This document shows, piece by piece, positions 46,908 to 51,332 of a stretch of DNA of 64,000 nt; position 1 is the first letter of the stretch; each line of letters begins with the position of its first letter. This DNA is from an uncultured archaeon. GTDB lineage: Archaea; Thermoplasmatota; Thermoplasmata; Thermoplasmatales; Thermoplasmataceae. The notes under the pieces are model-generated. The model was not told the origin of the DNA, made no database searches, and worked only from the letters and a program-made list of their open reading frames with translations. Position numbers and translations under genes: made by a program. The stretch spans positions 256,001 through 320,000 of the forward strand of contig CP009479.1 of assembly GCA_000965745.1 (NCBI GenBank). Direction: 5' to 3'.

Positions 46908-48122
46908 TCACTCATCGGTCGCCGCGTCCCCTTTATCGTCCGGATTCCGGGTAATTTCCCTGAAATGCGTTGCAAGATAAAGGAAGATGAGCGACAGGGC
47001 CACAATAATGCTCAGTGTGACTGTTGTCCTGAGAAGGGATGCCTCGGTGAGAGTCAGGGTTACGAGGATTCCGCCCGAAACACCGCCAATGAACTGCCCG
47101 GAAAACTGCATTGTGTTGTATATGCCTATGTTTGCCCCGTAGCTGTCCCTCTTTGATATCCTCGATATCAGCGGATAGAAGACTATCTCGTATATGGAGA
47201 ATCCCGAGAAGAAGACTATGGCGCCGACGAAGAACCAGTTCCTGTTGCCTGTGTAGTGGGGGGCCAGGAAGACGAGTGGTACGCTTACGAGCATTACCGC
47301 CAGTGATATGACGGAGAACATGGTGGTCTTGCCACGGTCAGCGAACCCTGAGGACCCGACTGCAACGATTCCGCCGATGATTACAGGCCAGAGAAGGAGG
47401 AGATCATACCCATGGGTGCCGTAGGCGCTGGTGCCGTAAAGTGGAAGGTAGTAGAAGAATACAATCATGTAGAGGGAGATCAGGAAACCGACAGCCCCAA
47501 CAAGGATTGCCCTTCCCTGGATCCTTCCTGCGGACCTCCTCTCCTTCGCAGTCATCTCAGGTTTCCTGTATTTTACCCTCATCATCGGGAATATCCCGGC
47601 GATTCCGAGTATCCCGGACAGCAGGAAGAGGAATGAGGGGCCGAATATTCCCGACAGGTACGGGCCGAGCACAAGGCCGACCATGAAGGAGAACCCTATT
47701 GGGATTCCGAGAATTGCCATCGCGATGTTCCTCCTGTTCTGGGGGACGCTCTCCTGAACCATTGCCATCCCGGATGAAGTCACCGCTCCGGCACCTGCAA
47801 CGAGCCTTCCTATGATCAGCCCGTATATGTTGAACGGATGCCACGCAATGAGATTCCCTATGATGTAGGGTATCATCCCCAGAATGATCACATTCTTCCT
47901 GCCGAACCTGTCTGAAAGTATGCCGAAGGGTGCCTGGAAAAGTGCCATGGTAAGGCCATAGGCACCAAGCGCAATACCGATGAGAATAGAAGAGTCAGTG
48001 TATATTTTCCCATAGAGTGTGAAAACAGGAACAACAAGGAATATTCCAAACATCCTCAGAACTTCAATCACCGCTACTGCGGAAATCATCTGCTTCTGAT
48101 TTCTGTCAAATGCCCTCATCAT
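46908..48122 (-). CDS. MFS transporter (YajR-like)
   Basis: LRMFGIFLVVPV, QAPFGILSDRFGRK. Confidence 0.9.
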   Translation of the reverse strand: MMRAFDRNQKQMISAVAVIEVLRMFGIFLVVPVFTLYGKIYTDSSILIGIALGAYGLTMALFQAPFGILSDRFGRKNVIILGMIPYIIGNLIAWHPFNIYGLIIGRLVAGAGAVTSSGMAMVQESVPQNRRNIAMAILGIPIGFSFMVGLVLGPYLSGIFGPSFLFLLSGILGIAGIFPMMRVKYRKPEMTAKERRSAGRIQGRAILVGAVGFLISLYMIVFFYYLPLYGTSAYGTHGYDLLLLWPVIIGGIVAVGSSGFADRGKTTMFSVISLAVMLVSVPLVFLAPHYTGNRNWFFVGAIVFFSGFSIYEIVFYPLISRISKRDSYGANIGIYNTMQFSGQFIGGVSGGILVTLTLTEASLLRTTVTLSIIVALSLIFLYLATHFREITRNPDDKGDAATDE

Positions 48123-48279
48123 TGAGAACTACCACTCCGGAATGGCACATTTCTATTAAACGGTTAGTTTCAGGTTAATAAAATCGCAGAGTCCCCATGG
48201 TTCATTTCAGGGCGTTCAAAAGAGCAGTGCGAGAGAATGACAGACAAAACTATTTATATCGGAGAATACTGCACTGTTA

Positions 48280-48354
48280 GTGAGTCTGACAGCAAGTACC
48301 ACGGAACTCAACTTTTCAGTCGTCGGTATTTTGCAGATTATTATTGGACTCTAA
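48280..48354 (+). CDS. Putative ilv leader peptide (24 aa)
   Basis: GTG...TAA = MSLTASTTELNFSVVGILQIIIGL; starts about 21 nt after the TATA box TTTATAT (48253-48259). Confidence 0.65.
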   Translation: MSLTASTTELNFSVVGILQIIIGL

Positions 48355-48387
48355 GCACGCGGCCAAGTGTTGACGTGTGTTTCATTT
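48354..48387 (+). terminator. Putative attenuator hairpin with U-rich tail
   Basis: AGCACGCG (48354-61) pairs with CGTGTGTT (48374-81, two G-U), inner CAA/TTG, then TCATTT and the RBS GAGGTG. Confidence 0.5.
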
Positions 48388-48398
48388 GAGGTGGTTTT

Positions 48399-50111
48399 TT
48401 GAGAGGTGCCAGACTTCTTCTAGATTCTTTGGCCCGGCGTGGGGTTGACACAGTATTCGGGATACCCGGGGGTGCGAGCCTTTCCATATATGAGGAGATG
48501 TCCTCAATGGATCTGCGGCACATCCTCGGAAGGCACGAGGGCAGCACGGTGTTCATGGCAGACGGTTTTTCCAGGGTCTCCCGGAAACCGGGCGTATTCC
48601 TCGGTACATCGGGCCCTGGAGCAACCAATGCAGTCACCGGTGTAGCTACAGCCTACACCGATTCTTCCCCGGTGATATGCATAACTGGGCAGGTAGCAAC
48701 GCAGTCCATGGGCAGGGATGCATTCCAGGAGGCGGATAGCTTCAACCTCATGGTTCCGGTGACAAAGTGGAACTTCAAGCTGAAGCATGGGGCGGAAATA
48801 CCCCGGGTGATAAACAGGGCATTCAGGATTGCGACCAGCGGCAGGTTCGGCCCGGTGGCGATAGACGTTCCATCGGATGTTGTGAGCAAAGAGGTGGACG
48901 AAGCCTCGATACAATGGGCTGATGAGCCCTCATTGGCAAACAGCTCTGACCTGTCGGAACTGGCGAATGCTGTCAGCATGATAAGAAACGCTGCAAAGCC
49001 TGCAATAATCGCAGGGGGCGGCGTAAGGTGGTCCGATTCCGGAGACGTTGTAATAAGGCTCGCCGAAAAAATAGGCGCTCCGGTTGTGACCACTGTCATG
49101 GGCAAGGGTGGAATACCTGAGGACCACCCACTGGCGCTGGGGACAACGGGAATGCATGGGAGGAGATCGTCCCACTGGGTGCTCAACGAGGCGGACCTTG
49201 TAATCGCGGTCGGAACCAGGTTCAGCGACAGGACGACAGGAAAAACGAGCGGGTTCCTGCCAAACGCGAAGGTCATCCACATAGACATAGACAGGGCGGA
49301 GATAGGGAAGAACATAACCGGCGTAGTGGGCCTCGCTGGAAATTCTGCAGATGTGCTTAACGCGATCATGAGCGGCCTTGATTATCAGGCGGAGTCCAGG
49401 AGCGAGTGGGTGAAGAAGGTAAGTGAGGTGAGGACGTTCTGCCAGTGCGATTTTGACCTCCCCGGGAATCCCATAAAGCCCCAGAAGCTGATGAGTTCAC
49501 TGTCTAGGCTTCTGCCTGATGACGCCATCCTTACAACGGACGTTGGGCAGCACCAGATGTTTGCCTCGCATTTCTTCGAGACAAGGGGCAGGAGGCAGTT
49601 CATAACATCAGGCGGCCTCGGCACAATGGGCTTCGGGTTCCCTGCTGCAGTGGGGGCAAAGATAGCCGCTCCAGAAAGGAAAGTGGTGAGCATTGTCGGT
49701 GACGGGGGATTCCAGATGAGCTATTCTGAATTCATAACGGCAGTCGAGAACGAAGTGCCTGTGTTCACCGTGATAATGAACAACCAGAGCCTCGGGATGG
49801 TGAGGCAGTTCCAGAAACAGTTCTACGGGAACAGGGTATACGCCGCTGATTACCGGAGAAGCCCCGACTTCGCGAAATTCGCTGAGGCCATGGGCGGAGA
49901 GGGTGTAACAGTGGAAAAGGCAAGCGAGATAAACGAGGCCATCGCGAGGGGGCTGAAGAGCGATGTCCCCTTCATCGCGGATGTCAGGGTGGACATAAAC
50001 GAGGACATACTGCCTATGACACCGCCGTGGATGGGGCAGGAAGGCACGATTTACGGAAGATGCAAATGGAGGGACGTGAAGGTTGAGGAGCCTCAGAATA
50101 TTGGCAACTGA
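48399..50111 (+). CDS. ilvB: Acetolactate synthase large subunit
   Basis: FGIPGGA, RHE, TSGPGATN, RFSDR, GTMGFG, GDGGFQM...NN..LGMVRQ; TTG start. Confidence 0.95.
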   Translation: MRGARLLLDSLARRGVDTVFGIPGGASLSIYEEMSSMDLRHILGRHEGSTVFMADGFSRVSRKPGVFLGTSGPGATNAVTGVATAYTDSSPVICITGQVATQSMGRDAFQEADSFNLMVPVTKWNFKLKHGAEIPRVINRAFRIATSGRFGPVAIDVPSDVVSKEVDEASIQWADEPSLANSSDLSELANAVSMIRNAAKPAIIAGGGVRWSDSGDVVIRLAEKIGAPVVTTVMGKGGIPEDHPLALGTTGMHGRRSSHWVLNEADLVIAVGTRFSDRTTGKTSGFLPNAKVIHIDIDRAEIGKNITGVVGLAGNSADVLNAIMSGLDYQAESRSEWVKKVSEVRTFCQCDFDLPGNPIKPQKLMSSLSRLLPDDAILTTDVGQHQMFASHFFETRGRRQFITSGGLGTMGFGFPAAVGAKIAAPERKVVSIVGDGGFQMSYSEFITAVENEVPVFTVIMNNQSLGMVRQFQKQFYGNRVYAADYRRSPDFAKFAEAMGGEGVTVEKASEINEAIARGLKSDVPFIADVRVDINEDILPMTPPWMGQEGTIYGRCKWRDVKVEEPQNIGN

Positions 50112-50328
50112 TGAAGAGGGTACGCTGCAGAGAACAATATTTGAGTTCAGCAGGAGGAACATACCCATAGGGAGGCTGATGTACAGCCATGAGAAAGATT
50201 CGGTCACCATGCACATAGGCGTGGAGAGGGATGAGGACGTCAACAGGGTGCTGAAGCACCTGAACAGGATATACGGCGTGAGAGACGTAAGTATACTCGA
50301 GAATGAGGAAGTGAGAGAAAAATGGTAA
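50083..50328 (+). CDS. ilvN: Acetolactate synthase small subunit (ACT domain only)
   Basis: GTLQR...FSRRNIPI...[10 protein letters not shown]; lies between ilvB and ilvC. Confidence 0.8.
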
Positions 50329-51332
50329 AGGCATATTATGAGAAAGACGGAGATTTGAGCACACTTGACGGTAGACAGGTATCCGTCATTGGCTATGGAA
50401 TACAGGGAAGGGCCCAGGCCCTCAACTTGAGGGATTCCGGTGTGAATGTGGAAGTTGGCCTGAGGAAAGGCGGAGCCAGCTGGAAAAAGGCTGAAGAGGA
50501 CGGTTTCAAGCCCCTGACAGTATCGGAAGCCGCAGAATTAGGCGATGTTGTCATGGTACTGATACCCGATGAGGTACAGGCCGTTGTCTACGCGTCAGAG
50601 ATCGCCCCCGGGCTGAAAAAGGGAAACACGCTTGAGTTTGCCCACGGGTTCAACGTTCATTTCAGCAAGATCGTGCCGCCCGACGGCGTGGATGTTGTCA
50701 TGGTGGCGCCGAAGGGGCCCGGACAGATGGTCAGGCGGACGTACCTCGAAGGGTTCGGCACGCCAAGCCTTGCAGCAGTGGAAAAGGACCATTCCGGCAA
50801 AGCCTGGGAAACCGCAATGGCACTTGCAAAGGGGATAGGGGCAACCAGGGCAGGCGTTATAAAGACCACCTTCAGGGAGGAAACTGAAACGGATAACTTC
50901 GGAGAACAGGTCGTCCTCTGCGGTGGAGTCTCAGAACTGATAAGGAAATCGTTCAACTATCTCACATCCGAGGGGTACCAGCCTGAGATCGTGTATTTCG
51001 AGGTTCTGCATGAGCTGAAGCTAATCGTGGACCTGATCCAGGCAGGAGGACTTGAGAATATGTGGAACAATGTCAGCAACACTGCAGAATATGGCGGGAG
51101 AACAAGAGGTCCTGTTGTTGTCGACAGCGGAACAGAGGAGAAGATGAAGAAGATCCTCGCCGACATAAGAAGCGGCGCTTTCGCAGAGGAGTGGATGTCC
51201 GAGGTCGCAAAAGGGGTTCCAAACCTCGACGGCATGAGGAAAAAGGGCTCTGATGAAACCATTGAGAAAGTGGGAAAGGAGCTCAGGAGCATGTTCGTCA
51301 AGGGCGAGGAAGCTACTTCTGCAGCGAGATAA
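50322..51332 (+). CDS. ilvC: Ketol-acid reductoisomerase
   Basis: [35 protein letters not shown]. Confidence 0.97.

Follow-up and report, generated by a model that had tools for sequence, protein, structure and literature searches.

Does an archaeal ribosome, in reading a short leader, sense the supply of the amino acids that the downstream operon makes? The ilvBNC locus in a 64,000-nt stretch of archaeal DNA (contig CP009479.1, positions 256,001 to 320,000 of the forward strand; hereafter the window) raises this question, as a 24-codon upstream open reading frame (uORF) stands between its promoter and ilvB. The window lies within a complete 2.23-Mb genome of the class Thermoplasmata. Leader-peptide attenuation is a textbook bacterial mechanism and depends on coupled transcription and translation. 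In our literature searches we found no published description of leader-peptide attenuation in archaea; one tool paper states, in general terms only, that uORFs regulate in archaea too. Here we propose that the uORF is probably a ribosome-based sensor of branched-chain amino acids for ilvBNC.

Results

The leader uORF and its promoter

The uORF (48280-48354, + strand, as are all features of the window given below) opens with GTG and closes with TAA at 48352-48354, and it is probably leaderless. Valine, isoleucine and leucine (V/I/L) account for eight of its last 11 residues, and the candidate control codons that we read from the sequence all fall within 48319-48351: Val14-Val15 (48319-48324), Ile17 (48328-48330), Leu18 (48331-48333), Ile20-22 (48337-48345) and Leu24 (48349-48351). 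Codons for the operon's products stand consecutively as GTC GTC and ATT ATT ATT, and all four Ile codons are ATT. Between the uORF and the TTG start of ilvB (48399) lie TCATTT and the Shine-Dalgarno sequence (SD) GAGGTG (48388-48393). An initial annotation of the window had named these elements, along with a TATA-like TTTATAT at 48253-48259, and each was found as described. Of the 1263 genes in this genome with an upstream gap of at least 60 nt, 18 (1.4%) have a uORF with at least eight V/I/L residues in an 11-residue window, and the heads of both branched-chain operons, ilvB and leuA, are among them. In a single genome such a uORF is uncommon and only moderately beyond chance, and it is not compelling alone.

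The TATA box of the ilv promoter (48252-48259), preceded by an A-rich stretch that resembles a transcription factor B recognition element, keeps its position in the four species of the genus and at more distant loci. Its distance to the uORF start is 27 nt here and, counted from the first T of the TATA box, 27-31 nt in all compared relatives that have the uORF. Across this genome the distance from TATA-like motifs to start codons peaks at 26-30 nt, so that the GTG does lie, as had been proposed for it, at leaderless distance from the promoter; that the distance matches the genome-wide mode points to leaderless mRNAs. We place the most likely 5′ end of the ilvBNC transcript at the GTG at 48280 or a few bases from it. 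Co-transcription of the uORF with ilvB is suggested by the single TATA box and by the lack of a promoter-like element in the 45-nt spacer that separates the two. Immediately upstream of the ilvB TATA box of family f12 and related contigs (loci L305, L307-L310, L313, L314 and L345-L349) is a motif of about TGCTAATTCGTCACAAG. It is degenerate in the window (48236-48251) and may be a transcription-factor site acting alongside the leader.

Conservation of the uORF

We compared six sequences of the genus, from this genome, three other species and two contigs of sequencing-run assemblies. All six have a uORF of 24 codons in the same place, with a GTG or TTG start. Pairwise differences within the set reach 37 of the 69 sense-codon bases compared, and the variable columns number 15, 15 and 19 at the first, second and third codon positions. 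The genus keeps codons 1-3, the ATT ATT pair at codons 21-22, Leu24 and the stop, and in all six sequences that pair (48340-48345) is invariant at the nucleotide level. Frame, length and codon content are thus kept while the peptide sequence is free to change. The initial annotation had suggested looking in relatives for a conserved V/I/L-rich uORF with synonymous changes; the conserved uORF is there, but the codon changes are mostly non-synonymous.

Beyond the genus, where IlvB is about 60% identical, most of the sampled relatives also have a uORF of 23-24 codons. In the nearest other genus (G131, IlvB 60% identical) it is ATG-started, has 24 codons, five of them ATT, and is followed immediately after its TAA by a different 5-bp stem. 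Leaders L305, L307, L308 and L309 likewise have uORFs of 23-24 codons, and those of the family f12 relatives start with ATG. G131, L305 and L308 also have a tandem ATT ATT, at codon numbers that differ from those of the genus. We roughly estimate the chance of a 23-24-codon frame at a set distance from the promoter at ~3% per independent lineage. The persistence of the frame in leaders too diverged to align argues for translation, and we read the uORF as conserved rather than as a chance ORF; the alignment of upstream regions that had been suggested as a check found it kept both in the genus and in relatives.

Tail composition of the ilvB and leuA leaders

We surveyed one ilvB locus per genus across Thermoplasmata. 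A V/I/L-tailed uORF ending 50-65 nt before ilvB is found in families f10, f26, f28, f32, f35 and f36, in part of f12, in f1 (genera g1 and g16) and in f6 (genus g29). The last 12 residues of 21 such leaders, from 21 genera, contain a mean of 7.3 V/I/L residues, compared with 2.8 in 76 other ORFs from the same regions (Mann-Whitney p 3e-12). V (27%), I (15%) and L (20%) together make up 61% of the last 12 codons; F (1.2%), M (0.4%), A (2.4%) and W (0%) are depleted, as are Y and C. An enrichment limited to V/I/L, with these six other residues depleted, is unlike a membrane peptide, and the V/I/L richness noted initially for this one uORF is, class-wide, specific to branched-chain residues and not a matter of general hydrophobicity.

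The uORFs that precede leuA, sampled in 22 genera, have a different tail. Leu contributes 105, Val 13 and Ile 29 of their 263 tail residues, compared with 50, 67 and 37 of 252 in the ilvB leaders (Fisher p 1e-11, uncorrected for phylogeny). As compared in these sequences, tail composition is matched to the operon product, the hallmark of sensory leader peptides.

The leuA-leuC-leuD operon of this genome has its own leader outside the window, a uORF of 26 codons (22 from ATG) at L295:336-416 (G000:C1:1628136-1628216). It is Leu/Val-rich with no Ile, and five of its eight Leu codons are the rare TTG. Both G002 and G131 conserve the C-terminal half of this uORF. A duplex is predicted between UCACCC, in its last codons, and GGGUGA, the SD of leuA (fold z -2.26); the G131 counterpart, UCACCA:UGGUGA, differs from it on both sides.

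We sought leaders of other pathways in this genome as well; the head of the trp operon has no Trp uORF, and a search for hisG did not find the gene. Runs of Thr, His or Ile do occur in uORFs elsewhere, before genes for an MFS (major facilitator superfamily) transporter, a ferredoxin oxidoreductase, an ABC (ATP-binding cassette) ATPase and a transposase; these uORFs were taken as chance. One of the 18 V/I/L-rich cases, also outside the window, lies within 100 nt upstream of a gene for a TPP (thiamine pyrophosphate)-enzyme paralogue of IlvB with 27% identity (G000:C1:1034722-1036312, - strand). Between the TATA box and the leuA uORF there is a perfect palindrome, GTCATGG..CCATGAC.

RNA structure between the uORF and ilvB

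Folding places a hairpin directly after the uORF stop (48355-48378), with an outer stem at 48355-48359/48374-48378, an inner stem at 48360-48364/48368-48372 and a bulged A at 48373. The initial annotation had drawn an 8-bp stem here (48354-48361/48374-48381). Its letters are present, but they pair in another register, as GCACG/CGTGY followed by the inner 5-bp stem and the bulged A. Within the genus the stem undergoes G.U, A-U and G-C exchanges. Genus g16 and family f12 have a different stem sequence in the same place, at or over the stop codon, and hairpins that abut or include the stop recur with unrelated sequences in other lineages, being strong in L305, L308, L311 and f28-f36. In the f12 hairpin the stop codon is part of the 5′ arm, and the 3′ arm takes in the first G's of the SD. 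Set against shuffled sequences, the whole leader folds no better (z 0.52).

Three short elements follow the hairpin. The U-rich spacer GTTTCATTT (48379-48387) is T-rich in all genus sequences and reads A5 in g16. The SD (48388-48393) is invariant in the six genus sequences and g16. A T6 run (48395-48400), which ends within the ilvB start codon, is T4-T7 in all genus sequences and absent outside the genus. Oligo-T is the archaeal intrinsic termination signal, and the T6 run could be such a termination or pause signal, or merely the spacer between SD and start codon.

Several pairings of the leader are conceivable. CUC-UAA at the end of the uORF can base-pair with the last three U's of the spacer together with the GAG of the SD, and the G003 variant (UAG stop, CUU) would, by our reading, retain pairing with UUU-GAG. 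At ilvB this pairing is suggestive only, a weak candidate, and CUCU at the uORF end could alternatively pair with AGAG after the start codon. A possible long-range helix, for which the indications are weak, joins GAGUCUGA (48282-48289) to UUGGACUC in codons 22-24 (48343-48350). It appears in the centroid fold and in the minimum-free-energy folds of two relatives, and 5-6 bp of it are kept as a core. Pairing survives two one-sided changes and is broken at two terminal positions; we did not find the helix in g16. The second pairing of the initial annotation, AGTC-CGGTA with TATTG-GACT, can form here, yet it is not conserved among the other species of the genus. We rejected an anti-SD pairing, ACCAC:GUGGU, which is present here yet lost in relatives, and a pairing between the 5′ end and CAGACUU (ilvB codons 4-6), which by our reading is restricted to this genome. 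Nor do we accept ATT ATT ATT and the hairpin as a frameshift site, since the run is not slippery and a TGA at 48387-48389 closes the frame of ilvB.

In 7-12 orthologous leaders, folded free or ribosome-masked, we found no conserved alternative pairing that could serve as antiterminator. A scan for terminators returned no terminator-like site between the uORF and ilvB. The bacterial-style attenuator layout originally envisaged is thus not shown by these sequences. No mutually exclusive antiterminator was found, the T-rich tail is not conserved outside the genus, and the hairpin energy is unexceptional. Nor did folds with and without a ribosome, represented by 30-nt masks at the control codons or at the stop, bear out the supposed switch in access to the ribosome-binding site (RBS), as SD and start-codon accessibility did not change consistently. 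A scan of 47000-49500 with Rfam covariance models (E up to 10) gave only one chance miRNA match. When genome and metagenome collections were scanned for the exact pattern of the hairpin block, only the three metagenome-assembled genomes of the same genus emerged, apart from chance matches in GC-rich bacteria.

Other ilvB leaders and the genes of the locus

In genus g29 of family f6 (L006, reverse strand; L285; L286) the uORF has 34 codons, is SD-led and contains an L/V/I run of 15-17 residues. A C-run/G-run hairpin comes after it, then a T6-7 tract some 50 nt upstream of ilvB, and no TATA box intervenes. By its sequence this is the most bacterial-looking attenuator layout in our survey. Genera g3, g19 and g20, of the family to which this genome belongs (L007-L010, L287-L294), are without the 24-codon leader and have, about 65-90 nt upstream of ilvB, a near-invariant 22-nt block, GGTTTATCTAACATCTGTGGCG, followed by a T run. 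Their very short ORFs, of varied length, end in Arg/Gly-Phe/Leu-Ile and stop at a TAA inside this block, which may be a different device with a single Ile test codon. Many family f11 genomes have two adjacent ilvB-like copies, and a single in-frame TGA or TAA occurs in many of the matches, which could reflect run-through into the neighbouring copy, or recoding. A protein-pattern scan of genome contigs returned mainly bacterial IlvB and no useful leaders.

The genes at the locus are ordered ilvB-ilvN-ilvC. The gap upstream of ilvB measures 276 nt and is bounded on its far side, at 48122, by a divergent MFS transporter gene. ilvB (48399-50111) encodes the acetolactate synthase large subunit, with the Pfam TPP_enzyme N, M and C domains from residue 1 and a TIGR00118 score of 651.8 bits, above the cut-off. 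Its TTG start is right because the IlvB profile alignment begins at residue 1. The ilvN-like gene (50083-50328) encodes a small subunit of 81 residues that consists of an ACT domain without the C-terminal domain (a weak ACT_AHAS_ss match below the cut-off; PRK11895, E 2e-4), and overlaps ilvB by 29 nt and ilvC by 7 nt. In related contigs the same short ilvN-like gene lies 3′ of ilvB. ilvC (50322-51332) encodes ketol-acid reductoisomerase, with the Pfam domains KARI_N and KARI_C.

Discussion

A sensory leader for ilvBNC

We favour, with moderate confidence, the reading that the uORF is a cis-acting sensory leader of ilvBNC through which scarcity of charged tRNA would raise ilvB expression. The features described above lead us to infer that the uORF is translated, that ribosomes stall in it, in which direction the operon responds and which step is regulated. 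In the mechanism that we propose, a ribosome would load at the 5′ end of the transcript and read the 24 codons. When charged tRNA-Ile (and that for Val or Leu) is scarce, it would dwell at codons 14-24, above all at ATT ATT, codons 21-22. If its footprint resembles that of a bacterial ribosome, its leading edge would then reach the final sense codon and the stop, which lie at the base of the post-stop hairpin. Such dwelling would alter the folding of the 45-nt spacer and allow more ilvB expression.

The geometry bears on which step is regulated. With the same footprint, a ribosome at codon 21 or 22 would reach just to the stop and leave the hairpin intact, whereas a terminating ribosome would melt the 5′ arm. 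Because the stalled ribosome would spare the hairpin and the terminating one would melt it, the sign is wrong for a plain terminator; it would be right if the last uORF codons pair with the ilvB initiation region. Pairing of the uORF end with the SD is weak at ilvB and clear in the leuA leader (UCACCC:GGGUGA). We consider, and hold loosely, that initiation of ilvB at its SD and weak TTG is more likely to be the regulated step than termination at a hairpin followed by U's. Control at initiation would amount to translational attenuation of the kind known from the leaderless Cys ORFs of mycobacteria or from erm leaders.

Four other explanations have to be weighed against a sensory leader. Classical transcription attenuation would have the post-stop hairpin terminate transcription, together with the T-rich stretch at 48379-48387 or the T6 run at 48395-48400, when the leader is read fast, and stalling would prevent this. 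All six genus sequences do have a hairpin and then T-rich sequence, the g29 leaders come close to the bacterial layout, and archaeal intrinsic termination uses oligo-T. We nevertheless judge this explanation unlikely, as no conserved antiterminator pairing was found, the ribosome geometry predicts a response of the wrong sign, g16 has A5 in place of the T tract, the f10, f12 and f28 leaders have no such tract, and the hairpin is energetically unexceptional. A constitutive uORF that senses nothing, and for example delivers ribosomes from the leaderless 5′ end by termination-reinitiation or fixes a low level of translation, would account for the better conservation of length and position than of V/I/L content (which is low in L309 and L307) and for the steady distance, 33-48 nt, from the uORF stop to the ilvB start. 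It would leave unexplained why the tail is rich in branched-chain residues and poor in other hydrophobic ones, why ATT ATT is invariant and why the leaders before leuA are Leu-specific, and we regard it as distinctly unlikely.

Two explanations remain. In one, the uORF would not be translated, and the conserved blocks would be an RNA element or DNA operator with an incidental open frame. Several blocks are indeed conserved at the nucleotide level, third codon positions included (the first 10 nt, ATT ATT, the hairpin and its loop), and the motif that precedes the TATA box in relatives hints at protein regulators acting here too. We find this improbable given a frame of 23-24 codons at the same promoter distance across lineages with unalignable leaders; moreover, the G.U pairs of the stem fit RNA and not a DNA palindrome, and no Rfam family matches. 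A functional small hydrophobic or membrane peptide is highly improbable. The C-terminus is hydrophobic and the hydrophobic stretch extends over about 17 residues in g29, but here it has only 13, the amino-acid sequence is unconserved even within the genus, and the hydrophobic residues are confined to V/I/L (F, M, A and W being depleted), with a switch to Leu in the leuA leaders.

Several observations weigh against a sensory leader as well. GTG and TTG are weak leaderless start codons, and the uORF start would be lost if transcription began a few bases downstream of 48280. ATT makes up 27% of the Ile codons in the genes of this genome, and enrichment of non-preferred codons is likewise expected of non-coding DNA. 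The hairpin is no more stable than shuffled sequence (z -0.09 in this genome), and one lineage of the genus has a U.U mismatch in it. Within the genus, ribosome masks revealed no consistent switch in SD or start-codon accessibility; among 24 masked leaders the trend was weak, with an accessibility of 0.46 when stalled and 0.38 at the stop, and 16 of the 24 changed in the expected direction. L309 and L307 carry a 24-codon uORF with background or low V/I/L, L310 and L312 are without the uORF, family f11 (12 genera sampled) is without any, and the single f27 locus sampled has no V/I/L-rich one. The class-wide tests are not phylogenetically independent, and choosing the richest V/I/L uORF of each genus introduces some selection bias; the contrast between ilvB and leuA is unaffected by that choice.

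Relation to known leader peptides

In E. coli, ivbL (before ilvBN) and ilvL (before ilvGMEDA) are short ORFs with runs of Val/Leu or Ile/Val/Leu codons that precede acetolactate synthase genes. These leaders are SD-dependent, have 32 codons and act through alternative 1:2, 2:3 and 3:4 hairpins and a rho-independent terminator. We found no sequence or Rfam similarity between ivbL or ilvL and the archaeal leader. The archaeal element seems to share the sensory leader design with such systems, but no antiterminator was found in it, and its hairpin and T-rich sequence are no more than a candidate terminator.

A working precedent for a leaderless leader is the attenuator of Corynebacterium glutamicum ilvBNC with its leader peptide IlvL (PMC11857589). 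The operon is the same, and in both cases a short peptide with clustered Ile/Val/Leu codons is encoded by an ORF that begins about at the transcription start site, a start that is predicted here (PMC11857589). The C. glutamicum leader is 292 nt long, forms three hairpins, one of them a terminator, and acts on transcription (PMC11857589). The archaeal locus differs in its 45-nt spacer, its one hairpin without an evident antiterminator, and its archaeal promoter and RNA polymerase.

Closer in the step acted upon are the leaderless poly-Cys small ORFs of mycobacteria, the 'Cys ribulon', which unmask a downstream RBS (bioRxiv 10.1101/834739). There, as predicted here, the first cistron is leaderless, codons for the product are consecutive, an effect on the RBS of the following gene is proposed, and several operons share the sensed amino acid, the counterparts here being ilvBNC and leuA-CD. 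The mycobacterial system senses Cys and not branched-chain amino acids, and its RBS-sequestering duplex has been demonstrated (bioRxiv 10.1101/834739); the archaeal duplex is a prediction, clear only for the leuA leader and weak for ilvB. The same report also describes ermC and cat, where a ribosome arrested in a leader ORF similarly remodels a hairpin near the downstream start, but where arrest comes from a drug and the nascent peptide, not from a lack of charged tRNA (bioRxiv 10.1101/834739).

Implications

Taking the ilvB and leuA leaders together, we lean slightly towards a ribosome-sensed branched-chain amino acid regulon in Thermoplasmata, in which leaderless mini-ORFs, V/I/L-rich before ilvB and Leu-rich before leuA, would read the supply of charged tRNA and set how strongly the downstream enzymes are expressed, by a mechanism suited to transcription and translation in archaea and with no need for a bacterial-type terminator. 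Such leader uORFs would explain the unusually long 5′ untranslated regions before ilvB and flag a class of mini-genes that annotation misses. The presence in one genome of a pair of leaders, Ile/Val/Leu for ilvBNC and Leu for leuA-CD, makes this a directly testable system. If the proposal is true, archaeal ribosomes serve as amino-acid sensors, leaderless mRNAs are a convenient platform for such sensing, and the sensing logic arose, or was kept, together with an RNA polymerase and a termination machinery unlike those of bacteria.

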